From the NCBI GenBank assembly GCA_963820035.1, contig CAWFYK010000002.1, positions 724,524-788,523 of the forward strand: a stretch of DNA of 64,000 nucleotides. Direction: 5' to 3'. The notes beneath the pieces were generated by a model. The model saw nothing but the letters and a program-made list of their open reading frames with translations, was not told the DNA's origin and did not search any database. Within the stretch, counting starts at the first letter, position 1. Each line of letters opens with the position of its first letter. The position numbers were made by a program, and so were the translations under genes. Shown here piece by piece: positions 2,100 to 62,810 of the stretch. This DNA comes from an uncultured Actinomycetota bacterium. Lineage in GTDB: Bacteria; Actinomycetota; Actinomycetes; Propionibacteriales; Nocardioidaceae.

Positions 2100-3960
2100 G
2101 CTCGACGGGGGGCGGGAGCGCCGTAGTCGGATGGACAGTCGCATATCGTTCGGGTCTGAGTTCCTTGGGTTCGAGATGATTGGGTATGCAGGGTCGTCCG
2201 CTTGATGAGCGTGAGTTGTTGGATGCCGAGTCGGTTGCTGGTCATTTGGTCGATGAGGGCAGCGTGTTCTGGTTGTTGGCCGAGCATCGCCGGGTGCTGT
2301 TCGCGGGGGCGATGTTCGCGGACCTGTTCCCTTCGGGTCGTGGTCGTCCCTCGGTACCGGTCGACATTGCCGCGTCGATCTTGGTCTTGCAGGCGTTGCA
2401 TGGGCTGTCGGACCGTGAAGCGATGGCCGCGTTACGGACTGATCTGCGGTGGAAGGTCGCGTGTGGTCTGCCGATCGGGCATGGCGGGTTCGACCCGTCG
2501 ACGTTGACGTATTGGCGCAAGCGCCTCGCGGCGAGCGCAGCGCCGAACCGGATCTTCGACGCGGTGAAGGCGGTGGTCGCGGAGACCGGGGTCCTCAATG
2601 GCAGGAACCGGCGGGCACTGGACTCGACCATCCTTGATGATGCGGTCGCGACCGAAGACACCGTGACGCAGCTGATCGCGGTGATCCGCAAGGTCCGTCG
2701 CGAGGTCCCCGGTGCTGCTGAGGTGGTGACCGAAAGGTGCAGTGCGCACGACTATGACAATCCGGGTAAGCCGCAGATCGCTTGGGACGACAGCGAAGCC
2801 CGCGCGGTCTTGGTCGATGCGTTGGTCCGCGACGCTCTCGCGCTGCTCGAGGTCCTCAGCACCTGGAGTCTGACGGGCCTGCGGCCGAGGCGGTCGCGTT
2901 GCTGGCGCTGATCGCGGGCCAAGACGTCGAGCCGGCGCCCGGGTCCGACGGCACCGACGGGCGCTGGCAGATCGCCCGCAGCGTCGCCCCGGACCGGGTG
3001 ATCAGCATCGTGGACCCCGAGGCGCGGCACGCCCATAAGACCGTGCATCGCCGCCAGGACGGGTTCAAGGCTCACCTCGCGGTCGAGCCCGAGACGGGGA
3101 TCACGACCGGGTGTGAGTTCACCAAGGCATCAGGCGTGGCGGCTGCGGACGGCACGACCGGGATCCGGCTCCTCGACCACGACACCACCCTGGCCGAGCT
3201 CGACCAGGACGAGGTCGCCGACGTGCTGGGTGACAGCGCCTACGGCACCGGTGACGCACTCGAGGCGATCATCGGAGCCGGGCACGTCCCCCTGGTCAAG
3301 CCGGGACCGCTCAAGGCGACCGTTCCGGGCGGGTTCACCCTGGACGACTTCACCATCGATGAGCAAGCCGGGACCGCGACCTGCCCCAACGGCTTGACCC
3401 GCCCGATCACCAAGACCCGAAAAGTGACCTTCGGGGCAGGCTGTCGAGAGTGCCCGCTCCGGGCGCTGTGCACGACCGCCAAGTCCGGCCGGATGCTGAA
3501 CCTGCACCAGCACCATGGGCTGCTGCGTGACCACCGCAAACGCGCGAAAGACCCTGCCTGGCAAGCCGCCTACCGCCAACACCGGCCGATGGTCGAGCGC
3601 TCGATCGCCTGGCTGGTCGCCGGCGGGAACGCAAGGTCCGCTACCGCGGCGTCACCAAAAACAACGCCTGGCTCCACAACCGCACCGCAGCCCTGAACCT
3701 GCGCCGACTGCTGAACCTCGGCCTCATCCGACAGCACGGGGCCGGGCCCTGGCCTGAGTCCAACAGCAGCCACCACAAGCCAGCATCCGAGGGCCCGCCA
3801 GGCCCCAGGACGCCCTACGCGGTCGACCATCGGCCACCTCGCGCACACCGAACGAGGCAGTCACAACCACGCCACGACACGTGACAAGTCCCCAGCCGAG
3901 CGAGCATCAGCTGACAACCCCCCGAAACAAGCCTTGTTCAGCAGTCTCCTAGTCAGGCGG
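2100..3960 (+). mobile_element. Decayed IS1182-family insertion sequence; ends not defined
   Basis: Contains the frameshifted transposase listed below. A C-terminal-like ...ALFSSLL coding remnant lies near 3930-3950. I could not verify terminal inverted repeats. Confidence 0.5.
2180..3882 (+). pseudogene. IS1182-family DDE transposase, disrupted by at least two frameshifts
   Basis: ORFs 2180..2911 and 2782..3696 plus a third frame (RKVRYRGVTKNNAWLHNRTAALNLRRLLNLGL...) together rebuild one transposase. Recognisable segments are LHGLSDREA...LRWKVACGL, RVISIVDPEARHAHKT, GDSAYGTGD and RPMVERSIAWLV. Frame switches fall near 2870-2910 and 3625. Confidence 0.75.
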
Positions 3961-10725: not shown

Positions 10726-10857
10726 CCGCCGAACCGTCACCTTCTTACCGCCGAACCGTCACCTTCTTACCGCCGAACCGTCACGTTCTTACCGCCGAAC
10801 CGTCACCTGCTTACCGCCGAACCGTCACGTTCTTACCGCCGAACCGTCAAGAAGTTC
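10726..10857. repeat. R22-A left arm, locus 1: 6 tandem 22-bp units CCGCCGAACCGTCACCTTCTTA
   Basis: Units start at 10726 + 22n. The last unit is the variant CCGCCGAACCGTCAAGAAGTTC. The array begins 4 bp after the qor-like stop codon. Confidence 0.95.
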
Positions 10858-10915
10858 CCGGCATGACGCCTCCGCGAGCAGCTCAAACAGCCGAGAGAAG
10901 AGATGGCGGCTGGAC

Positions 10916-11047
10916 TGCAAGAACCTGACGGCTCGACCGGAACAACCTGACGGCTCGACCGCAACAACCTGACGGCTCGACCGGAAGAACATGACGGCTC
11001 GACCGGAAGAACATGACGGCTCGAGGGTAATTACCTGACGGCTCGGC
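10916..11047. repeat. R22-A right arm, locus 1: 6 tandem 22-bp units GGAAGAACATGACGGCTCGACC (diverged inverse of the left arm)
   Basis: TGACGG anchor at 10926, 10948, 10970, 10992, 11014 and 11036. The last unit overlaps the 3' codons (RRAVR-stop) of the 11031..12317 ORF. Confidence 0.95.
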
Positions 11048-12317
11048 GAAGGCGAGCGACCGTCCGGCGTACGACCGGGTTGCGGCCGAGCCGCGCACGG
11101 ACCCCGGTCTGCCAGGAACGCGCGGTGGCCGGCCGGGCCCGCTCGTCCGCCACCAGCCCGTCGATCCGCTTCTGCTGACGCTCGACGCGTCGCAGCAGCT
11201 TGTCGCGCTCGGTCGTCAGTGCCTCGACCTGGTGACCGAGCTCGTCACCTTCCTGCCGAAGCTCGACCGCGTTGAGGACCATGCCGATGAGTCCCCCCGA
11301 CGCCGCCTGGAGCAGCTCCCGCTCGGTGGCCTCCGCCGGGTCGACGACATCGGACGGAGGATGCTCGGCTGGCACCAGCTCGGCCAGATCGCCTTCCACT
11401 CGGACGCCCGAAGTCTCGATCCCGGCGATCATCATGCGAGCGCGGTTGCGCACCCAGCCCTGCTGCTCGGGCGAGAGCGCGAAGCGCGGCTCCAGGCCGG
11501 CTCTGGTCGCGATGAGCGCTCCGCCCAGAGCGCCCCGGTAGCCATAAGGCTTCTCTGTTGCCATCCCCGGGTACTCGAGATTGAGCTGTCTCATCAGCTC
11601 GGCCGAGTGGGCGCCGAGCGACGAGTTGACCAGCGTCTCGGGTTGCTCGAGGCCCGTCATCGGAATCCCGAGCACCGAGCCGATGCGCCCGACGACGATC
11701 TCGGGAGTGGTTCCGGTGGGCGGCACCGTCACCACGGTGATCCGGTCGAGGGGGACCACCTGCTGCCATTGAGCGAAAATCGTCGTCACGTCGTGGACCT
11801 TCCAGAACCAGTCGCGCAGTCGAGTGGCGTCGCTCGCGGCCGCATCGCCGGATGGGGCATCCTCGTCGCCTGCCGGGGTGCCGTCAGAGCAGACGGCCGC
11901 CGCGAAGTCGTTCCAGCCGACGGTCTTGCCGCCCTTGATCGTCGTCTGCCAATGCGAGGGGATCAACTGGGCCGGATCCCGCACCGTGATGACGACGTTG
12001 AGCTCGACGTGCCTGAACCCATGCACGATGGTCCGGACCGAACGGGTTCCGCCACCGGCGATGAGCTCGTTGACGATCATCACGTCACCGTCGTGCTGGT
12101 TGACCTGGCGCACCAGCCGACGCCAGGTGTTGCCCCCCGGAGCGTCCGCCTTGGACATGCGCCCCAGCAGGTCCCGCACCGCGTCGTAACGGATGGTGCC
12201 GGCCACCCACAGCAACCCTTCCTCGGCAAGGCGTTGCGCGTTGAGCTCACCAACCTGTTGGACGTATGACGTCCCGGTCTTCATCTCGCCGATGTGCAGG
12301 AAGACCCGTCGCGCCAT
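11031..12317 (-). CDS. Hypothetical protein with a sulfotransferase-like N-terminal P-loop motif and a C-terminal coiled-coil-like region
   Basis: 428-aa ORF. HIGEMKTGTSYVQ resembles the 5'-PSB loop of sulfotransferases. The family call is tentative. Confidence 0.45.
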   Translation of the reverse strand: MARRVFLHIGEMKTGTSYVQQVGELNAQRLAEEGLLWVAGTIRYDAVRDLLGRMSKADAPGGNTWRRLVRQVNQHDGDVMIVNELIAGGGTRSVRTIVHGFRHVELNVVITVRDPAQLIPSHWQTTIKGGKTVGWNDFAAAVCSDGTPAGDEDAPSGDAAASDATRLRDWFWKVHDVTTIFAQWQQVVPLDRITVVTVPPTGTTPEIVVGRIGSVLGIPMTGLEQPETLVNSSLGAHSAELMRQLNLEYPGMATEKPYGYRGALGGALIATRAGLEPRFALSPEQQGWVRNRARMMIAGIETSGVRVEGDLAELVPAEHPPSDVVDPAEATERELLQAASGGLIGMVLNAVELRQEGDELGHQVEALTTERDKLLRRVERQQKRIDGLVADERARPATARSWQTGVRARLGRNPVVRRTVARLRRAVR

Positions 12318-16883: not shown

Positions 16884-18191
16884 ATGCCCACCACCTTTGA
16901 CTCCGACGCGGAGGCAGCGGGACTGTGCGCCTTCGTCGATGCGTCCCCTTCGCCGTTCCATGCCTGCACTGAGGCGGCCGCAGTCCTCGAGGCCAGCGGC
17001 TTCACGGCGCTCGACGAGACGGCCGGCTGGCCGCGCGAACCTGGCCGCTACTACACGACTCGCGGCGGCTCACTCGTCGCCTGGAGCACGGAGTACGCCG
17101 ATGGCCGCGCGACGCCGTTCCGCGTCGTCGGAGCCCACACGGACAGCCCCAACCTGCGGATCAAGCCACGCCCCGACGTCTCCCGCGCCGGCTGGCGGCT
17201 GCTCGGCGTCGAGGTCTACGGCGGTCCGCTGCTGAACTCCTGGCTCGACCGCGATCTCGGGCTCTCGGGGCGCGTCACTGTCCGGGGAGCGAGCGGCGTG
17301 GAGGAGCGGCTGGTCGCGATCAACGACCCGATCCTGCGGGTCGCGCAGCTCGCGGTGCATCTCGACCGCGAGGTCAACGAAGCCGGAGTGAAGCTCAACC
17401 CGCAGCAGCACCTCGCACCGATCTGGGGCGTTGGCACGGAGCCGGGCGACTTCCGCGCCATGGTCGCCGACACCGTGGGGTCCGAGCGTGACGACGTCCT
17501 GGGCTGGGACCTGATGACCCACGACCTCACCCCCTCGCGCCGCATCGGTCAGGACCGGGAGCTCATCGCGGCGCCTCGCCTCGACAACCTCGCCACGACG
17601 TACGCCGGGGTGAGGGCGATGGTCACGGCCGTCGAGACGGCTCCCGCGTCGCCCCAGGTGCTGGTGCTCGTCTTGTTCGACCACGAGGAGAACGGCAGCA
17701 TGTCCGAGCGCGGCGCCTTCTCGACGCTGCTGCCCGCCACGTTGGAGCGAATCGTGATCACCCGCGGCGGTGATCGGGAGGACTACCTGAGGGCCCTTGC
17801 CGGATCCGTCATCGCGTCCGGCGACATGGGTCACGCGACCCACCCCAACTACGCCGAGCGACACGAGCCACAGCACCAGATCGCCGTCAACGGCGGCCCG
17901 GTGCTGAAGGTCAACAACCGGCTGCGCTATGCGACCGACGCGCGGGGGACGGCGGCGTTCTCGCTCGCGTGCGCGCAGGCCGGCGTACCTGTCCAGCAGT
18001 TCGTCGGGCGCTCCGACATCCCGTGTGGCTCGACGGTCGGCCCGATGACGGCCGCCCTCACCGGAGCGACGACCGTGGACTTCGGGGCGGCTGCCCTGTC
18101 GATGCACTCGGCGCGAGAGCTGTGCGGCGCGGATGACCCCGCGATGTACGCCGCCGCCCTGGCCGCCTTCCTGTCCCCCGCCGCCCCTTGA
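16884..18191 (+). CDS. apeB: M18-family aspartyl aminopeptidase
   Basis: MPTTFDSDAEA..., SPSPFHA, VGAHTDSPNLRIKP, LFDHEENGS, SMHSARE. The ORF upstream of ATG 16884 is antisense to the permease and not protein-like. Confidence 0.8.
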   Translation: MPTTFDSDAEAAGLCAFVDASPSPFHACTEAAAVLEASGFTALDETAGWPREPGRYYTTRGGSLVAWSTEYADGRATPFRVVGAHTDSPNLRIKPRPDVSRAGWRLLGVEVYGGPLLNSWLDRDLGLSGRVTVRGASGVEERLVAINDPILRVAQLAVHLDREVNEAGVKLNPQQHLAPIWGVGTEPGDFRAMVADTVGSERDDVLGWDLMTHDLTPSRRIGQDRELIAAPRLDNLATTYAGVRAMVTAVETAPASPQVLVLVLFDHEENGSMSERGAFSTLLPATLERIVITRGGDREDYLRALAGSVIASGDMGHATHPNYAERHEPQHQIAVNGGPVLKVNNRLRYATDARGTAAFSLACAQAGVPVQQFVGRSDIPCGSTVGPMTAALTGATTVDFGAAALSMHSARELCGADDPAMYAAALAAFLSPAAP

Positions 18192-18244
18192 CCATCCGAG
18201 ACGTCCGGAAGTCTCGGATGGTGGTGCCGGAAGTCTCGGATGGT
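18191..18244. repeat. Minimal R22-B element: one inverted unit plus two direct units that form a perfect hairpin between convergent genes
   Basis: ACCATCCGAGAC (18191-18202), loop GTCCGGAA, GTCTCGGATGGT (18211-18222), then a second direct unit to 18244. It fills the whole gap between the apeB stop (18189-18191) and the marR-like stop (18253-18255). Confidence 0.85.
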
Positions 18245-18252
18245 TGGGGGGG

Positions 18253-22381: not shown

Positions 22382-22572
22382 AAAACTCTCGGATCGTCGT
22401 ACCGAAACTCTCGGATCGTCGTGCCGAAACTCTCGGATCGTCGTGCCGAAACTCTCGGATCGTCGTACCGAAACTCTCGGATCGTCGTACCGAAACTCTC
22501 GGATCGTCGTGCCAAAACTCTCGGATCGTGGTGCCGAAACTCCCGGATCGTGGTGCCGAAACTCTCGGATCG
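22382..22572 (+). repeat. R22-B single-arm array: 9 tandem 22-bp units (GAAACTCTCGGATCGTCGTACC / ..GTGGTGCC)
   Basis: TCGGATCG anchor at 22389 + 22n (n=0..8; unit 8 carries TCCCGG). The last unit runs straight into the stop codon of the GroES-like gene (22573-22575). Confidence 0.95.
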
Positions 22573-22914
22573 TCAGAGGTAGAGGCCGGTGGCGCCTTCT
22601 TCGACGCGTTCGGAGGCGACGGCGTGCAGGTCGCGCTCGCGGAGCAGGATGTACATGTCGCCGCGCACCTCGACCTCGGCCTTGTCCTCGGGGTCGAAGA
22701 GCACCCGATCGCCCGCCTCCACGGTGCGGACGTTGGCCCCGACACCGGCCACCCGCGCCCAGGCGAGCCGGCGGCCCATCATCGCAGTCGCCGGGATGAC
22801 GATCCCGGCCGAGGACTTGCGCTCACCGGCCTCGGCGTCGAGCTGGACGAGCACCCGGTCGTGGAGCATCCGGATCGGCAGCTTCTCGACCGGAGTTGGT
22901 GTGTTCTTCGTCAC
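22573..22914 (-). CDS. GroES-like co-chaperonin family protein (non-canonical)
   Basis: IRMLHDRVLVQ..., SAGIVIP, GDRVLF, GDMYILLRERDLHAV follow the GroES pattern. It is not adjacent to a groEL. Confidence 0.55.
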   Translation of the reverse strand: MTKNTPTPVEKLPIRMLHDRVLVQLDAEAGERKSSAGIVIPATAMMGRRLAWARVAGVGANVRTVEAGDRVLFDPEDKAEVEVRGDMYILLRERDLHAVASERVEEGATGLYL

Positions 22915-23778: not shown

Positions 23779-23861
23779 GCCAGAGTGGTGGAATTGGCAG
23801 ACACGCGGGCTTTAGGTGCCCGTGCCCTTTGGGCGTGAGGGTTCGAGTCCCTTCTCTGGTA
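23779..23861 (+). tRNA. tRNA-Leu (anticodon UAG), class II with a long variable arm; no encoded CCA
   Basis: Acceptor GCCAGAG/CTCTGGT, anticodon stem CGGGC/GCCCG with loop TTTAGGT, variable arm GCCCTTTGGGCG, T-arm GAGGGTTCGAGTCCCTT. Confidence 0.9.
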
Positions 23862-32986: not shown

Positions 32987-33054
32987 GGCGCCGACCCTAT
33001 CGCCGGGCTCGAGACGGGCCGGACCCGATCGGCCGCGCCCATCAGGGGCCCCTG

Positions 33055-33100
33055 CCCGGTGGCCAGCCCGGTGGCCAGCCCGGTGGCCAGCCCGGTGGCC
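33055..33100. repeat. 12-bp tandem repeat CCCGGTGGCCAG, about 3.8 copies
   Basis: Units at 33055, 33067 and 33079, with a partial unit at 33091. Lies in the rph / ECF-sigma divergent intergenic region. Confidence 0.9.
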
Positions 33101-33149
33101 ATATCCGGTCGCCGCGCATCGCCGGCTCGGCGGCCCCGGACGAACTGCC

Positions 33150-33191
33150 GTGACGGGTTTGGCGTGACGGGTTTGGCGTGACGGGTTTGGC
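33150..33191. repeat. 14-bp tandem repeat GTGACGGGTTTGGC x3, immediately upstream of a -10-like GATAAT
   Basis: Units at 33150, 33164 and 33178. GATAAT at 33203-33208 sits 6 nt before the GTG start of the sigma factor (33215), suggesting a leaderless mRNA. Confidence 0.85.
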
Positions 33192-33751: not shown

Positions 33752-34386
33752 GCGACCCGCTGGACATCCTGCGACGTGAACCGAGCGCCGTCTTCCCCGA
33801 CCCGGAGTTCGCCGACCGGCTGCGCGCACGGCTCACGCGCGCCCTCGACCCCCAGGAAGCCGACTATCACCTAGGAGCAGACATGAGTCCCACCCCCGCG
33901 TCCTCGACCGCCAGTCAACCTGCCGAGACGGCAAGGCCGGCCGAGAGGGACGCGGCCGAGGCGGCAACGCCGGCCGAGGCGGCAACGCCGGCCGAGGCGG
34001 CAACGCCGGCGATGGTGCCCTACCTCGCCGCCCAGGGCGCTCGAGAGGCCATCGACTGGTACACCGACGTGTTCGGCGCCACCCTCGCCGGCGACCCGAT
34101 CGTGATGCCCGACGGCCGCATCGGCCACAGCGAGCTGCACATCGGACGAGCCGTCATCTACCTCTCCGATGCACACCCCGAGATCGGTGTTGTCGCGCCG
34201 ACGGCGGGCGAGGCCTCGGTCAGCCTGATGCTGACAGTCGACGACGCGGACGCCGTACTCGCTCGTGCACAGCGAGCCGGTGGCCGAAGCGACCGAGAGC
34301 CCTACGACGCCTACGGGCGGCGCAACGCGTGGATGATCGACCCGTTCGGGCATCGCTGGGGACTGAACAGCCCGATTCGAGGCTGA
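33748..34386 (+). CDS. VOC (glyoxalase/PhnB-like) domain protein with an N-terminal extension, translationally coupled to the sigma factor
   Basis: ATGA overlap with the sigma stop. The C-terminal half (MVPYLAAQGAREAIDWYTDVFGA...HSELHIG...IYLSDA...WMIDPFGHRWGL) is PhnB/VOC-like. Confidence 0.7.
   Translation: MSDPLDILRREPSAVFPDPEFADRLRARLTRALDPQEADYHLGADMSPTPASSTASQPAETARPAERDAAEAATPAEAATPAEAATPAMVPYLAAQGAREAIDWYTDVFGATLAGDPIVMPDGRIGHSELHIGRAVIYLSDAHPEIGVVAPTAGEASVSLMLTVDDADAVLARAQRAGGRSDREPYDAYGRRNAWMIDPFGHRWGLNSPIRG
33955..34008 (+). repeat. In-frame 18-bp tandem repeat x3 (AEAATP) in the linker of the VOC protein
   Basis: GCCGAGGCGGCAACGCCG at 33955, 33973 and 33991. Confidence 0.9.
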
Positions 34387-34434
34387 CGGTACGACGGCCC
34401 CAGGCCCTGCGGATTCGTCCGGTCACGACGCAAC

Positions 34435-34660
34435 GCAACCATCCGAGAGTTTCGGCACCACCATCCGAGACTTCCGGCACCACCATCCGAGAGTTCCGGT
34501 ACGACGATCCGAGACTTCCGGCACCACCATCCGAGAGTTCCGGCACCACCATCCGAGAGTTCCGGCACGACGATCCGAGACTTCCGGCACCACCATCCGA
34601 GAGTTCCGGCACCACCATCCGAGAGTTCCGGTACGACGATCCGAGACTCCCGGCATCGGC
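34435..34660. repeat. R22-B composite copy 1, left arm: 10 tandem 22-bp units (ACCACCATCCGAGAGTTCCGGC type)
   Basis: ATCCGAG anchor at 34441 + 22n (n=0..9) with no phase slips. Two sub-types are interleaved (ACCACCATCC / ACGACGATCC). Confidence 0.95.
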
Positions 34661-34924
34661 ATGGCCGGCTGCGGGGTCCCCTCTGTCAAGCGGCGTGCGT
34701 TGGTCGGGACGTGAAGAACAGCGGTGACGGCGGCTTTCGAGCTGCTCGTGTTGGTATGGCGCCGCGCGTCTGGGCCGGTGAACACAATCACGTTCGCAAA
34801 CAAAGAAGTTCGGCGCCAGTGCGACGGAACCACCTCGAGGGCCGTTGCGTCACTGCCGTTGTTCACGTCCCGAGCAACGCACGCCGCCTGAAGGAAGCGA
34901 CCCGCAATCGGGCTGTGCCGCAGG
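34661..34924. other. R22-B 264-bp core, copy 1 (internally palindromic, non-coding)
   Basis: Identical by eye to 41403-41666. Contains 43-nt imperfect inverted arms around a 118-nt, less GC-rich centre. Confidence 0.85.
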
Positions 34925-34925
34925 G

Positions 34926-35227
34926 TCGGATCGTGGTGCCGGAACTCTCGGATCGTCGTACCAAAACTCTCGGATCGTCCTACCAAAACTCTCGGATCGT
35001 GGTGCCGGAACTCTCGGATGGTCCTGCCAAAACTCTCGGATCGTACGTACCAAAACTCTCGGATCGACGTGCCAAAACTCTCGGATCGTCCTACCAAAAC
35101 TCTCGGATCGTCGTACCAAAACTCTCGGATCGTCGTACCAAAACTCTCGGATCGTGGTGCCAGAACTCTCGGATCGTGGTGCCAGAACTCTCGGATCGTG
35201 GTGCCAGAACTCTCGGATGGTCGGGAG
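34926..35227. repeat. R22-B composite copy 1, right arm: one partial plus 13 tandem units (GGAACTCTCGGATCGTGGTGCC type)
   Basis: TCGGATCG anchor at 34948 + 22n. A single 23-bp unit shifts the phase by +1 from 35059. The array ends 18 bp before the MBL stop codon. Confidence 0.95.
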
Positions 35228-35245
35228 GTAGCAGAGCAGGCTGGG

Positions 35246-36004
35246 TCAGAGGTGGTAGGACAGGCCGGGGCGCGCCACCGACAGCGCGCCGGTGAAGTGC
35301 GGCTCGGCGTCGGCAAGCACCCGGTCGCGGTCGACCCAGGGCTGGACGTGGGTCAGCAGCAGCTGACCGGCGCCGGCGCGCGTGGCGATTTCGGCCGCCT
35401 CCCGCCCCGACATGTGCAGGTGCTCGGGCTTCTCCCCGTTCTCGAGGAACGTCGCCTCCGCGAGCAGCAGGTCGCAGCCGACGGCGATCGACTCCAACGC
35501 GTCGCACGGTCCGGTGTCACCGGAGTAGACCAACGTCCGCTCGTCGGCGGTGACGCGGATCGCGTAGGCGTCCACCGGGTGGTCGACGTTGGTGGTGTCG
35601 ATGCGGAACGGGCCGATGTCGACGGGCTTGCCGTCGTACTCGCGGAAGTCGAACTCGGCGGTCATGCCCGGCTCGGGGGCGATGTCGTAGGCACGCGCCA
35701 TCCGGCCGGCCACCCCCGGTGGACCGAAGACCGGGATCGAGCCCAGGTGGCCGCTCGGGTGGTATTTCCGCACCACATAGAAGCCGCAGAGATCGAGGCA
35801 GTGGTCGGCGTGCAGGTGAGTGAAGGCCACCGCGTCGATGGTGCGGAGGTCGACGTAGTTCTGCAGCGCGCCGAGGGCGCCGCTGCCGAGGTCGAGCAGC
35901 AACCGGAAGTCGCGACCGTGATACGCCGTCTCGACCAGGTAGCACGAGGCCGGCGAGTCCGGGCCGGGAAAGGAGCCGGAGCAGCCGACGACGGTGAGCT
36001 TCAT
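35246..36004 (-). CDS. MBL-fold metallo-hydrolase (Rv1339-like)
   Basis: [38 protein letters not shown]. The start ATG overlaps the murI stop (ATGA). Confidence 0.8.
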
Positions 36005-40956: not shown

Positions 40957-41402
40957 CCGACGATCCGAGACTTTCGGCACCACCATCCGAGAGTTTTGGT
41001 ACGACCATCCGAGAGTTTCGGCACCACCATCCGAGAGTTTCGGTACGACGATCCGAGAGTTCCGGCACCACCATCCGAGAGTTCTGGCACCACCATCCGA
41101 GAGTTCTGGTACGACGATCCGAGAGTTCCGGCACCACGATCCGAGAGTTCCGGCACCACCATCCGAGAGTTCCGGCACCACCATCCGAGAGTTCCGGCAC
41201 CACCATCCGAGAGTTCCGGCACCACCATCCGAGAGTTCCGGCACCACCATCCGAGAGTTCCGGCACCACCATCCGAGAGTTCCGGCACCACCATCCGAGA
41301 GTTCCGGCACCACCATCCGAGAGTTCCGGCACCACCATCCGAGAGTTCTGGCACCACCATCCGAGAGTTCTGGCACGACGATCCGAGACTTCCGGCACCA
41401 CC
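40957..41402. repeat. R22-B composite copy 2, left arm: 20 tandem 22-bp units
   Basis: ATCCGAG anchor at 40963 + 22n (n=0..19) with no phase slips. Eight consecutive units (41161-41336) are identical. The array starts 4 bp after the pncB stop. Confidence 0.95.
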
Positions 41403-41666
41403 ATGGCCGGCTGCGGGGTCCCCTCTGTCAAGCGGCGTGCGTTGGTCGGGACGTGAAGAACAGCGGTGACGGCGGCTTTCGAGCTGCTCGTGTTGGTATG
41501 GCGCCGCGCGTCTGGGCCGGTGAACACAATCACGTTCGCAAACAAAGAAGTTCGGCGCCAGTGCGACGGAACCACCTCGAGGGCCGTTGCGTCACTGCCG
41601 TTGTTCACGTCCCGAGCAACGCACGCCGCCTGAAGGAAGCGACCCGCAATCGGGCTGTGCCGCAGG
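41403..41666. other. R22-B 264-bp core, copy 2
   Basis: Base-for-base equal (by eye) to 34661-34924 at a constant offset of 6,742. Inverted arms at 41429-41471 and 41590-41632 are 38/43 complementary. Confidence 0.85.
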
Positions 41667-41828
41667 GTCGGATCGTGGTGCCGGAACTCTCGGATCGTGG
41701 TGCCGGAACTCTCGGATCGTGGTGCCGGAACTCTCGGATCGTACCAAAACTCTCGGATCGCCTACCGAACTCTGGATCGCTACAAAACTCTCGGATCGTA
41801 TCGTCGTACCAAAACTCTCGGATCGTCG
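41667..41828. repeat. R22-B composite copy 2, right arm: about 7 units, progressively degenerate
   Basis: TCGGATCG at 41668, 41690, 41712 and 41734 is in phase. After that come irregular units at 41753, 41771 (TCTGGATCG), 41791 and 41818. Confidence 0.85.
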
Positions 41829-41829
41829 A

Positions 41830-41850
41830 GGGAGGGGAGGGAGGGGAGGG
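41830..41850 (+). other. G-quadruplex-type motif GGGAGGGGAGGGAGGGGAGGG
   Basis: Five G3-4 runs separated by single A residues, between the right arm and the DUF1697 stop codon (41851-41853). Confidence 0.6.
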
Positions 41851-42402
41851 TCAGGTGAGGGTGGGGGACGGCGCGGCCCACTTGTCGGCGAGGGCGGTGA
41901 CGACCTTCCAGTCGCGGCTCGTCGCGGCGAGCCCGGCTAGCTTCTCGATCCGCGCGTTGTTGGCCTTGGCCTCGTGGGAGGGCTTGGCGAGCCACATGTG
42001 GAGGTCGCGGCCGACCAGCTGCAGCCGCTCGCCGTCGACGTCCCAGCCGTTCAGTCGCTTCGTCGCCTCCGCTGCAGGCTCAGACCGCAGGAAGCTCAGA
42101 TAGTGCCGGGCGTCGTCGCCCAGCGGGTTGTCCGGGGCGGACTCGACGATGGCCCGGAGCTGCTTCGGCGTCCGCACCAGGGCCGGCACGGCGAACCCGA
42201 GCTGCTCCTCCAGCGCCGTCTCCATCATCGTCTCCACCTTCGCGGTGGACCTGGCCCGCGAGACGACGCACACGTTGCCGCTCTGGATGTGCGTCTCCAC
42301 CTCCGTGAAGCCGGCGTCGACGAGATGACCACGGAGCGCCTCCATCTTCACGAAACGGCCGCCCACGTTGACCGCTCGGAGGAACGCGATGTACGTCGCC
42401 AT
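41851..42402 (-). CDS. DUF1697-domain protein
   Basis: MATYIAFLRAVNVGGRFVKMEALR...VETHIQSGNV. The part of ORF 41851..42600 upstream of this Met is not needed. Confidence 0.7.
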   Translation of the reverse strand: MATYIAFLRAVNVGGRFVKMEALRGHLVDAGFTEVETHIQSGNVCVVSRARSTAKVETMMETALEEQLGFAVPALVRTPKQLRAIVESAPDNPLGDDARHYLSFLRSEPAAEATKRLNGWDVDGERLQLVGRDLHMWLAKPSHEAKANNARIEKLAGLAATSRDWKVVTALADKWAAPSPTLT

Positions 42403-44865: not shown

Positions 44866-45531
44866 TCAGCCCGACCAGCCGGGCCGGACAAGCCCGCTCT
44901 CGTAGGCCATCACGACGAGCTGGGCCCGGTCGCGCGCCTGCAGCTTCGTCATCGCGCGGCTCACGTGGGTCTTGGCGGTCGCCGGGCTGAGCACCAGACG
45001 CATCGCGATCTCGTGGTTGCTCAAGCCCTCCCCGACCAACGCTACGACCTCCCGCTCGCGGTCGGTGAGCGGGTCGAGGAGCTCGGGCGCGACGCTTCGC
45101 CGGCTGCGGTTGGCGAACTCCGAGATCAGCCGTCGGGTGACCCCGGGCGACAGCAGAGCATCGCCGGCTGCGACCGCGCGTACCCCCGCGAGCATCTCAG
45201 CGGGCTCGGTGTCCTTCACCAAGAAGCCGCTGGCACCGATTCGGACCGCTTCGAACACGTACTCGTCGAGGTCGAACGTGGTCAGGATGACGACGCGGGT
45301 GTCGCCGAGGGCCGGGTCCGCGACGATCTGCCTGGTCGCCTCCAGGCCATCCATGCCAGGCATCCGGATGTCCATCAGGACGACGTCCGGGCGGGTCGCG
45401 CTCACGACGTCGACCGCCTCCTGGCCGGTCGACGCCTCCCCCACGACGTCGATGTCGTGCTCGGCGTCGATCAGGGCGCGCAGCCCGGCCCGCAGCAGTG
45501 CTTGGTCGTCGGCCAGCACGACCCGGATCAC
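44866..45531 (-). CDS. NarL/LuxR-family response regulator
   Basis: IRVVLADDQALLRAGL, DVVLMDIRMPGMDG, LTDREREVVALVGEGLSNHEIAMRLVLSPATAKTHVSRAM. Confidence 0.9.
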   Translation of the reverse strand: MIRVVLADDQALLRAGLRALIDAEHDIDVVGEASTGQEAVDVVSATRPDVVLMDIRMPGMDGLEATRQIVADPALGDTRVVILTTFDLDEYVFEAVRIGASGFLVKDTEPAEMLAGVRAVAAGDALLSPGVTRRLISEFANRSRRSVAPELLDPLTDREREVVALVGEGLSNHEIAMRLVLSPATAKTHVSRAMTKLQARDRAQLVVMAYESGLVRPGWSG

Positions 45532-46814
45532 GGCGGATCCTCGCGAGAGAGCGGCAGCGTCGCGCGGATCAGCACGCCCCCAGTCGTGGCACGGCCGACG
45601 GTCAAGGTGCCGCCCAAGGCAGCGGCGCGCTCGTGCATCCCGCGAAGCCCGCTTCCCGTCGGCTCCGGCCAGCCGGGTTCGGCGCCGCCGGCCACGACGC
45701 CTGCGCCGTCTCCGTCGTCGTCGATCTCGACCACGAGTACGTCGGGGCGGTAGTCGAGCCGGACCTCCGCCCGGGCGGCTCCCGCATGTCGGATCACGTT
45801 GGTGACCGCCTCCTGGATGATCCGAAACGCAGCCAGCTCGACGGCCGTCGGCAGCGGTTGAACGTCCCCGTCGACCCTGGTGCGAAGATCCAGGCCGGCG
45901 AGCGCGCTGCGCTCGACGAGGTCGGGCAGCGAACCGAGCATCGCGGTGGGGCTGCGGGGCGCCCCTTCAGCCTCGTCGCGCAGAACCCCCACGAGGCTGC
46001 GGAGCTCCACGAGTGCCTCTTTGCTCGCCTCCTTGATGACGCCGAGGGCGGTCTCGACCTGGTCCGGACGGCGTTCCACCAGATGCAGCGCCACGCCTGC
46101 CTGCACGTTGATGAGCGACATGTGGTGGGCGACGACGTCGTGCAGCTCGCGAGCGATGCGCAGTCGCTCCTCGTTTGCCTGCCGACGCCCCGTCTCCCGG
46201 CGTGCCGCGCTGGCCGCGACCCACCGCTCGCGTCTGATCCGAACCGCCTCCGCAGCGGTGAGGATCACCAGTCCCCACGCCGCGACGCCGAGCGCCTCCC
46301 CCCAGGTGACCTGCTCGTCCAGCAGCCAAGAACGAGCGACGAGATGGCCGGCGTACAGCACGACGAAGCCCGACCAAGCGGCGAGCCGGTGGCCCGACAC
46401 GAGCGCAGCGAACAAGGCGATGGCCGCGCTCACGACGACCGGACCGTAGGGATAGCCGCGCAGCAGGTAGGCCAGGGTCGCCGCGAGGACGACCCACATG
46501 ACGGCGACCGGCTGGCGTCGTACCCACAGCAGCGCAACAGGACCAACCAGGGCGAGCAGCCAGGCGAGCGCGTCCAGGCTCCTTGCGCCGGTCTGGTGCC
46601 GGGAGGCGCCTATCGTCCCGACGACGACGAAGACCGCGAGCACGAGCGGACCCACGAACCCGATCCGCGGCGGCCGTCCCGGCCGGTCGGACCGGGCTCG
46701 CCAGTCCGCCCGCCACCGCTCGTCGGGCCGACCGGGCCCGGCAGCCCGCCAGGCCACGTCCGATCGCCCCGCTCCGTCGGGCTGGTCGGGGGATCGGCCC
46801 GCGGTCGTGGTCAC
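45528..46814 (-). CDS. Sensor histidine kinase (HisKA_3 / DesK-LiaS type)
   Basis: N-terminal TM segments, H-box ERLRIARELHDVVAHHMS, HATPase motifs QEAVTNVIRHAG...DDGDG...GSGLRGMHERA. Confidence 0.85.
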   Translation of the reverse strand: MTTTAGRSPDQPDGAGRSDVAWRAAGPGRPDERWRADWRARSDRPGRPPRIGFVGPLVLAVFVVVGTIGASRHQTGARSLDALAWLLALVGPVALLWVRRQPVAVMWVVLAATLAYLLRGYPYGPVVVSAAIALFAALVSGHRLAAWSGFVVLYAGHLVARSWLLDEQVTWGEALGVAAWGLVILTAAEAVRIRRERWVAASAARRETGRRQANEERLRIARELHDVVAHHMSLINVQAGVALHLVERRPDQVETALGVIKEASKEALVELRSLVGVLRDEAEGAPRSPTAMLGSLPDLVERSALAGLDLRTRVDGDVQPLPTAVELAAFRIIQEAVTNVIRHAGAARAEVRLDYRPDVLVVEIDDDGDGAGVVAGGAEPGWPEPTGSGLRGMHERAAALGGTLTVGRATTGGVLIRATLPLSREDPP

Positions 46815-46893
46815 CCTTGCACGCTAAGCGAGAACGTGGCGAGTGTCATCGCCTCCCCGGCCGAGTGCCTGCTACTCCCCCGGGAGTACCGCC

Positions 46894-47047
46894 CCGTCGA
46901 GCCGTCACCTTCTTACCGCCGAACCGTCACCTTCTTACCGCCGAACCGTCACCTTCTTACCGCCGAACCGTCACCTTCTTACCGCCGAACCGTCACCTTC
47001 TTACCGCCGAACCGTCACCTTCTTACCGCCGAACCGTCAAGAAGTTC
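46894..47047. repeat. R22-A left arm, locus 2: 7 units (1 degenerate, 5 perfect CCGCCGAACCGTCACCTTCTTA, 1 terminal variant)
   Basis: Perfect units start at 46916 + 22n (n=0..4). The terminal variant CCGCCGAACCGTCAAGAAGTTC (47026-47047) is the same as at locus 1. Confidence 0.95.
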
Positions 47048-47090
47048 CCAGTACGACGCCCCGCGCGGGAGCGTCATATCGTTGGCCGAC

Positions 47091-47288
47091 GGAACAAACC
47101 TGACGGCTCGACCGGAAGAACATGACGGCTCGACCGGAACAACCTGACGGCTCGACCGCAACAACCTGACGGCTCGACCGGAACAACCTGACGGCTCGAC
47201 CGGAAGAACATGACGGCTCGACCGGAAGAACCTGACGGCTCGACCGGAACAACCTGACGGCTCGACCGGAAGAACATGACGGCTCGCC
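47091..47288. repeat. R22-A right arm, locus 2: 9 units GGAAGAACATGACGGCTCGACC / GGAACAACCTGACGGCTCGACC
   Basis: TGACGG anchor at 47101 + 22n (n=0..8). The array ends 5 bp before the hppD stop codon (47294-47296). Confidence 0.95.
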
Positions 47289-47293
47289 GGAGG

Positions 47294-49192
<1,899 letters not shown>

Positions 49193-55038: not shown

Positions 55039-55097
55039 GCGCACCATCCTCCACCGACCGTCTCGAAGGCACGGACCTGCTGGACCATGCTGGACTG

Positions 55098-55154
55098 CGG
55101 TAGAGGCCATCAGCGAAGTGCACGTCGCGGGTCAAGGCGAGCCTCATCGCCTGT
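55098..55154 (-). promoter_or_regulatory. Fluoride riboswitch (crcB RNA motif)
   Basis: Minus-strand RNA: ACAGGCGAUGAGGCUCGCCUUGACCCGCGACGUGCACUUCGCUGAUGGCCUCUACCG. It shares GGCGAUGAGGC.CGCC and CUGAUGGCCUCUAC with the Thermotoga petrophila fluoride riboswitch as I recall it. Located about 60 nt upstream of the crcB-DUF190-crcB operon. Confidence 0.85.
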
Positions 55155-55196
55155 GCAACGAGTCTGCCCCAGACCACGGGGCTAGGCAAGCGAGAG

Positions 55197-62561: not shown

Positions 62562-62571
62562 GAAGATATCT

Positions 62572-62810
62572 CCTTCTCACGCCTGTGAGGTGAGCTGTCG
62601 GGTTCGAGCGAGAAGGTGCCCGGCCGTCAAAGGACGACTTAACCCCAAGCATGCCTACGGAAGACCGTTTCGATGCAGAAGAGTGGTTCCCCCACTTCTA
62701 CCCCTGAATGAGAGTTTCTGTGATTGGCGATTGGGTCGTAGTCGACACGGGGTAGAACTCGGCGTCCGTCGACCACGCTCTTCAGTTTTGGGTCCCGAGG
62801 ATCTAACCAC
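62572..62810 (-). promoter_or_regulatory. Probable cyclic-di-AMP riboswitch (ydaO/yuaA motif) in the 5' leader of the NlpC/P60 gene
   Basis: The minus-strand RNA contains CGGGACCCAA, GGGGUAGAAG, GGGGGAACC, UGGGGUUAAGUC and AACCCGACAGCUCACCUCACAGGCGUGAGAAGGAG. Compare Bacillus subtilis ydaO: GGGGGACCCA, GGGGUGAAUC, ACCCGAAUCCGUCAGCUAACCUCGUAAGCG. Boundaries are approximate. Confidence 0.6.

Follow-up and report, generated by a model that had tools for sequence, protein, structure and literature searches.

On balance, we read the composite repeat lying just downstream of hppD in an uncultured soil actinobacterium as one of the dispersed copies of a non-coding palindromic element of the foldback type in this Nocardioidaceae bacterium. 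We refer to this repeat as R22-A locus 2, and to the whole stretch of DNA that was analysed (64,000 nucleotides) as the window. The copy would consist of two inverted arms, each a head-to-tail array of 22-bp units, around a short family-specific core, and would have been inserted immediately past the hppD stop codon. The two arms are unlike each other in sequence, which, as judged by comparison of the copies, is best explained by whole-element copying from a common ancestor rather than by side-specific function. The element and its setting are as follows:

45528-46814, minus strand: HisKA_3 histidine kinase, the downstream gene (GTG start at 46814 in the longest open reading frame)
46894-47291: R22-A locus 2, whole element (7 left units, spacer of 42-43 nt, 9 right units)
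46894-47047, plus strand: left arm, 7 head-to-tail 22-bp units
47034-47065, plus strand: conserved junction/core CCGTCAAGAAGTTCCCAGTACGACGCCCCGCG, homologous to 10844-10876 at locus 1
47048-47089, plus strand: spacer of 42-43 nt, starting CCAGTACGACGCC (as compared to CCGGCATGACGCC at locus 1)
47090-47291, plus strand: right arm, 9 inverted units, with the minus-strand reading CGAGCCGTCA[T/G]GTT[C/G]TT[C/G]CGGT
47294-48490, minus strand: hppD (4-hydroxyphenylpyruvate dioxygenase), the upstream gene (stop codon at 47294-47296)

The initial annotation described a left arm of seven units, five of them perfect, and both Tandem Repeats Finder (46894-47039, 22-bp period, 6.6 copies, 98% matches, score 278) and the layout in register bear this out. 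The outermost unit (46894-46915) is the variant CCGTCGAGCCGTCACCTTCTTA, with a G at position 4; it is followed by five perfect CCGCCGAACCGTCACCTTCTTA units (46916-47025) and by the junction, or terminal, unit CCGCCGAACCGTCAAGAAGTTC (47026-47047), which is indeed identical to the last left unit of locus 1 (10836-10857). The right arm has the nine units ascribed to it (47090-47291, 9.2 copies by Tandem Repeats Finder, 92% matches, score 332); its units occur as the variants GGAAGAACATGA, GGAACAACCTGA, GCAACAACCTGA and GGAAGAACCTGA, with CGGCTCGACC after each, and the innermost one carries a 1-nt insertion. Inside the spacer there is a small apex palindrome, GACGC...GCGTC, at 47055-47075. The estimate that the arms are about 73% complementary was accurate: we find 71-76% in every register. 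R22-A elements are 320-400 bp long with inverted arms of 132-202 bp and contain no credible open reading frame. Their units abut, with no unique spacers between them, which distinguishes the arms from CRISPR arrays.

The element lies between the histidine-kinase start and the hppD stop, as annotated. In the minus-strand reading the right array begins 2 nt past the hppD stop codon, and, since the hppD C-terminus (ERRGNL, then the stop) is the same as in relatives, we place the insertion after the stop. On the other side, about 80 bp separate the left arm from the GTG start of the histidine kinase; in a relative, the start of this gene is called at the corresponding GTG. The hppD product is 100% identical to a protein on two long metagenome contigs (ENA/NCBI), and its closest named relatives are Nocardioidaceae MAGs.

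To compare units we used the register CGA[4]CCGTCA[11][12]TT[15]TT[18]C[20]G[22]. All left units have C11, A18, C20 and C22, and A4 is present in every left unit except the outermost one at locus 2, which, both in the window and in the sister strain, has the right-type G4. Right units, in the minus-strand reading, all have G4, T/G11, G12, C/G18, G20 and T22. Outermost-left G4 aside, the types are unmixed at the diagnostic positions in 6/6 arms (locus 1, locus 2 and sister-strain locus 2, that is, two R22-A copies and one orthologous copy), and the claim that arm types are kept by side at both loci holds for this set. The premise that came with it, namely that hairpin symmetry should homogenise the arms, is weak. 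By direct reading, no identical run between left units and reverse-complemented right units exceeds 6 nt, which is far below what homologous exchange needs, and the arms are therefore not expected to exchange or homogenise. The units of any one arm are near-identical direct repeats, so slippage and unequal exchange are expected within it. Type by side is what descent combined with within-arm concerted evolution predicts, and thus has an ordinary explanation: descent.

The two R22-A loci share a common ancestor. Locus 1 is made up as follows:

10726-11046: R22-A locus 1, whole element (6 left and 6 right units)
10726-10857, plus strand: left arm, 6 units, beginning 4 nt past the stop of a NADPH:quinone-oxidoreductase-type gene
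10858-10914, plus strand: spacer
10915-11046, plus strand: right arm, 6 units; the outermost one forms the 3' end (final five codons, RRAVR, and TAA stop) of a minus-strand 428-aa gene at 11031-12317

The claim that the spacer of locus 2, put at 43 bp, begins like that of locus 1 was upheld: the local alignment of the 33-nt junction/core of the two loci has a score of 44, as compared to 14.4 ± 2.3 for shuffles. The left arms of the two loci have identical runs of at least 44 nt in common. Furthermore, the inner right arms of locus 1, locus 2 and the sister-strain copy all have a rare GCAACAAC unit immediately following a GGAACAAC unit. The junction unit, the 33-nt core and the position of the rare right unit, all common to both loci, argue for copying of the whole element; beyond about 19 nt the two spacers diverge, and the copying was therefore not recent. 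Gene conversion between the loci could also keep the left arms alike. What was annotated as a terminal variant unit is better read as a half unit fused to the conserved core; the homology between the loci extends 19 nt beyond it.

The element is real and varies between strains. A sister contig (ERZ25039495 contig_87978, our L060 and L024) matches the window at 99.5-100% identity over 1-20661 and at about 97-98.4% over 37121-58509; this contrast between the first and last thirds of the window could reflect strain mosaicism or uneven assembly quality. The sister contig carries locus 1 unchanged. Its locus 2 has 6 left units (as compared to 7) and 9 right units, with the right-unit variants in a different order, although these counts and single-base variants need care, since several genes are frameshifted in the stretch holding locus 2, which is thus error-prone. 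An independent short-read contig from another data set (L061) is 100% identical to the window across the oxidoreductase gene and into the locus 1 array, where it stops after the first 33 nt. With the element present in a second long-read contig and the locus 1 junction covered by short reads, we do not regard it as an assembly artefact. The sister contig differs from the window in one further respect: an IS5/IS1182-type insertion sequence at 2143-3941 of the window (DUF772 and DDE_Tnp_1, in a split frame) is absent from the otherwise 100% identical L060, an insertion polymorphism unrelated to the 22-mers.

A relative (ERZ25039552 contig_67094) lacks R22-A at both sites. Its hppD is 90% identical, the gene order is the same, and 98 bp without an array separate hppD from the histidine kinase. 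At the site of locus 1, the two flanking convergent genes overlap by 17 nt, leaving zero intergenic DNA. R22-A is therefore an insertion. The site of an element of a second family (B3, 40963-41828, see below) is empty in this relative as well. By direct reading we found no direct repeat at the edges of locus 1 or locus 2, and hence no sign of the target-site duplication that the initial annotation had proposed to look for, while the divergence of the empty sites (about 90% protein identity) is too great for the exact edges to be placed.

R22-A is one of at least three related families in this clade whose palindromes have two arms built of 22-bp arrays and were inserted only a few bases from stop codons. 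Families A, B and C have the same 22-bp period and the same layout. The elements of the two other families are:

34438-35223 and 40963-41828: R22-B composites (B2 and B3; unit ATCCGAGAGTTCCGGCACCACC), foldback layout like that of R22-A
22383-22574: R22-B solo array, abutting the stop of a Cpn10-like gene
18190-18245: R22-B mini copy, a one-hairpin minimum between two convergent stop codons, with two more units in the sister contig
685-1171 of contig L027, from a relative: R22-C element (unit CCCGACGATCCGCCGGTTGTGT), two inverted arrays separated by a spacer of about 200 bp

The cleanest change in unit number is seen in the mini B copy, which has 2 versus 4 units in contigs that are 99.95% identical there. 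The B core, about 265 bp long, contains an inverted repeat of 73 nt; the two loci and the sister strain have it at 100% identity, although the surrounding genome differs by 1.6% there. It contains an inverted pair of an A-unit-like motif (GAAGAACAGCGGTGACGG; CGTGAAGAACAGCGGTGACGG / CGTCACTGCCGTTGTTCACG) at 34715-34735 and 34858-34880. Stretches of the A spacers gave only marginal matches to the B core (p about 0.03 and 0.007), and no homology was found between the A spacers and the C spacer. The C element sits between convergent CRCB and FGE-sulfatase genes, a junction that in the sister contig (L024) is only 10 bp long and empty. Unit variants are common to both sides in families B and C, and the right arm of C mixes two unit types; strict type by side thus characterises the two A copies rather than the architecture. 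This bears on the alternatives that the initial annotation had left standing against random local slippage: copying of the whole element gains from the junction, the core, the rare unit and the empty sites, while side-specific function, which type by side does not require, loses ground because B and C share variants between sides and unit types in other genomes vary by locus. Near B2 and upstream of the RNase PH gene we also noted perfect short tandem repeats (33054-33101 and 33149-33191; 12 bp x 4 and 14 bp x 3.1) and an array of five 18-bp repeats (33922-34010), and between the right arm of B3 and the stop of a DUF1697 gene there is a purine-rich run, GAGGGAGGGGAGGGAGGGGAGGG (41828-41862).

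Scanning with a degenerate two-unit pattern detected related 22-bp arrays in several Nocardioidaceae and Propionibacteriales MAGs. Their linkers vary between loci while the core CGARCCGTCA..TTCTT recurs, a recurrence that is partly imposed by the search pattern, and in other genomes the unit types differ by locus. Most of these arrays are solo, with 2-8 units, and inverted pairs occur in L013 and L019; with so many solo arrays, the hairpin is not needed for persistence. Arrays tend to follow genes: 20/30 start between -28 and +51 nt from the stop of a same-sense upstream gene, mostly at 0-10 nt, and the ORF filter behind this count missed further cases visible by eye. In metagenomes the strict R22-A pattern had no match, and most matches to a looser pattern were low-GC arrays of no relation to R22-A, but two were relatives (L054 and L059). 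With the loose pattern we also saw unrelated 22-bp arrays with a GTGACG-N-CGTCAC palindrome in Prevotella/Bacteroidales and gut or rumen contigs (L008, L009, L028, L038, L040, L044, L047 and L050). No further R22-A locus is present in the about 2 kb of the sister contig that extend beyond the start of the window.

The differences between the R22-A arms have a consistent strand polarity. Single A units and unit dimers have predicted folding energies of 0 to -0.9 kcal/mol, which do not surpass those of shuffles, and the left arm alone is predicted to be unstructured. The whole of locus 2 has a predicted folding energy of -252 to -254 kcal/mol on the minus strand versus -178 to -180 kcal/mol on the plus strand (z scores of -12.8 and -8.5, respectively). 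The mismatched arm positions have C or A on the plus strand of the window in both arms of both A loci; RNA of the plus strand would therefore have A.C, C.A and C.C mismatches where RNA of the minus strand would have G.U and G.G, and the predicted G.U pairs at the two A loci number 19-23 on the minus strand versus 0-1 on the plus strand. The better-folding strand is the same chromosomal strand in A1, A2, B2, B3 and, by synteny, the C element of the relative (-280 versus -213 kcal/mol, 21 versus 4 G.U pairs). In these five composites from three families the arm mismatches are C/A on the other strand, and a near-continuous hairpin is predicted for the better-folding strand alone. L013 agrees weakly with this polarity, and L019 and L054 have no asymmetry. 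As for composition, the plus-strand skew of the elements (GC -0.14 to -0.21, AT +0.25) is about five times the replication-type skew at the four-fold sites of 41 genes (about -0.03 for GC and +0.06 for AT).

The polarity itself is real, and pure descent and drift do not predict it; its recurrence in five composites, all from one chromosomal region, is no more than suggestive. Mutational skew as the sole cause is insufficient, the skew at four-fold sites being about five times too weak. The polarity may go back to a small number of strand-biased substitutions that concerted evolution then amplified; it may also reflect selection for an RNA hairpin of the minus strand, or a built-in active strand combined with orientation-biased insertion. 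We also considered Rho loading: the left arm, with 45% C, 14% G and no predicted structure, fits the C-rich, G-poor pattern. As a general rule for sense arrays this was rejected, since composition bias follows the strand and not the sense direction, and the A right and B right arms, when in sense, do not fit.

According to the reading that we favour, locus 2 would be the sister copy of locus 1: one composite ancestor, its arms already unlike, would have been copied whole to a new site. Afterwards each arm would have evolved alone by slippage and unequal exchange, with units gained, lost and homogenised within the arm, and arm type would follow side by descent, the arms sharing no run longer than 6 nt and being unable to exchange. 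Most probably the element is DNA of a selfish or neutral kind, which the host tolerates at the 3' ends of genes and in between convergent ones. Transcription would run into it from the upstream gene, and the minus-strand transcript is predicted to form a hairpin of about 160 base pairs, including about 20 G.U pairs, that could serve as a 3'-end barrier or processing site. How the copying took place is suggested by no gene in the neighbourhood: we found neither defined termini nor a candidate transposase for R22-A, and the only transposases in the window belong to the IS5/IS1182-type element, whose ends are unrelated to the 22-mer.

The polarity could instead mean that R22-A is a strand-specific mobile element that, like IS200/IS605 or REPIN-RAYT elements, moves or is processed in the form of a single-stranded hairpin. 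The unlike arms would then be a built-in asymmetry between the top and bottom strands, and orientation would be tied to the replication fork, so that the G/T-rich strand, which folds well, would always coincide with one and the same chromosomal strand. We consider this unlikely. It would account for A1, A2, B2, B3 and C folding better on the same strand (19-40 versus 0-26 G.U pairs) and for the excess of the element skew over that of four-fold sites; cumulative GC skew and gene orientation suggest that this strand has the leading-strand sequence and would be exposed as the lagging-strand template, and the absence of a target-site duplication fits single-strand transposons. Set against this, the composites number only five and come from one chromosomal region, L019 and L054 are symmetric, no HUH/Y1 transposase gene is found in the 64 kb of the window or the about 2 kb of additional sister contig, the units are not individual hairpins, and solo arrays exist. 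Somewhat more doubtful still is the generalisation that the A, B and C elements constitute a class of bacterial foldback transposons handled as single-stranded hairpins, in which the 22-mers would be sites for a strand-specific enzyme, the arms would mark the active strand, and insertion just after stop codons would be oriented by the fork. Quite improbable, in our view, is that the arms are protein-binding arrays, each 22-bp unit (about two helical turns) being the putative site of a DNA- or RNA-binding protein and the left and right types being distinct or oriented sites. A conserved CGA-N-CCGTCA..TTCTT core beside a variable 8-nt linker across genomes, a 22-bp period kept by three families with different units, and the A-unit-like motif standing as an inverted pair inside the B core would all suit such sites; however, the conservation of the core comes in part from the search pattern, no partner gene is linked and no promoter lies nearby, copy number varies freely between close strains, and the sites are absent in relatives that have the same flanking genes.

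Growth in situ, by local slippage from a native terminator hairpin, with the loci made alike by ectopic gene conversion of same-type arms, is largely refuted as an origin of the copies, and we give it little credence. The minimal B copy at 18190-18245, which is little beyond one hairpin and has gained units in the sister strain, is the kind of starting point that this would need, and the identical runs of at least 44 nt between left arms would suffice for gene conversion. However, one and the same unit, junction and core cannot arise independently at unrelated sites, the empty sites of the relative have no related hairpin (the locus 1 site having no intergenic DNA at all), and two loci share about 265 bp of B core at 100% identity. 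It is more improbable again that two independent arrays, each a solo arm at the 3' end of one of two convergent genes, make up a composite by coincidence. Most arrays do follow a stop codon in sense and most composites do lie between convergent genes, but locus 2 is flanked by two minus-strand genes and its left arm does not come after any gene, which refutes this reading there, and the junction and core are common to both loci. We see next to no chance that long-read metagenome assembly created the element: the source is of the nanopore type, and the frameshifted genes of the sister contig warn of errors in its unit counts, but the element is present in two assemblies, a short-read contig covers the gene-array junction of locus 1, and short-read MAGs contain related arrays as well.

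Strain typing makes use of bacterial intergenic repeats (REPs, MITEs and MIRUs, for example), which also shape the 3' ends of transcripts, and the manner in which several of them spread has yet to be settled. Of the features of the present element, only the strand polarity could set it apart from ordinary selfish DNA. If the polarity reflects mechanism, R22-A and its relatives would offer a tractable system in which to study how actinobacteria mobilise non-coding DNA in a strand-specific way; otherwise, they remain useful as markers and as a source of 3' ends with long hairpins, and pose a trap for short-read assembly.

Foldback (FB) elements of Drosophila and other eukaryotes have long inverted arms of short tandem subrepeats, unequal or variable in length, around a central loop. 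They are dispersed, most copies are non-coding, and they have MULE- or P-type transposases, target-site duplications and closely complementary arms. R22-A likewise has inverted arms of tandem subrepeats and variable arm lengths (7+9 and 6+6 units, and 6+9 for the sister-strain copy). It resembles the FB elements in architecture alone: its host is a bacterium, its arms are about 73% complementary with a strand polarity, and no duplication was seen at either locus. The MIRU minisatellites of mycobacteria are head-to-tail units of 46-101 bp at many intergenic loci, with ends that touch or overlap stop codons and with strain-variable numbers; their dispersal mechanism is unknown. R22-A shares with them the dispersed head-to-tail arrays at the gene ends of an actinobacterium and a unit number that varies between strains, but its unit is 22 bp long and its arms are paired in inverted orientation around a core. 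Small MITE-like insertions such as Correia/NEMIS and ERIC are non-coding and palindromic, are co-transcribed with their neighbours and form orientation-dependent RNA hairpins; they have defined terminal inverted repeats, target duplications and a body of unique sequence. R22-A has inverted arms and a small non-coding body as MITEs do, whereas its arms are tandem arrays and no target-site duplication was seen.

Like REP, BIME and REPIN sequences, R22-A is extragenic and mostly just downstream of genes, between convergent or co-directional ones, forms inverted pairs with the potential for a larger hairpin, and shows no target-site duplication; in its location and its unlike partners it recalls REP dimers. 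A REP unit, in contrast, is a stem-loop of its own, of 20-40 bp, with a GTAG/CGTC tag, whereas single R22-A units do not fold and are thus not REPs; they stand head to tail, CGTC occurs in them inside CCGTCA rather than as the terminal tag of a stem-loop, and no RAYT gene is present in the 64-kb window or the about 2 kb of additional sister contig. In a survey of REPs, pairs of unlike partners are common, with no agreed explanation, and head-to-tail arrangement is reported to be negligible; by term search, its main text makes no mention of Actinobacteria (PMC3733652). Rfam 15 has no match at E <= 1 in 46820-47320 or 34400-35250, and its gathering-level matches elsewhere in the window are a c-di-AMP riboswitch (62565-62739, minus strand), a fluoride riboswitch adjoining crcB genes (55094-55160, minus strand) and a tRNA (23779-23861, plus strand). 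We found no promoter consensus or U-tract terminator in 46600-47500, the predicted long hairpin having no U-tract, and no similar DNA in plasmids, phages or viral contigs. An iteron- or centromere-like array was rejected, the flanks being chromosomal housekeeping genes with no plasmid or phage similarity. In the part of the literature that we covered, we found no description of a bacterial element with tandem-array inverted arms, and R22-A is apparently an undescribed variant of the bacterial dispersed palindromic repeats. Its architecture is closest to that of the eukaryotic foldback elements, and its genomic habit to that of mycobacterial MIRUs and REP/BIME clusters.
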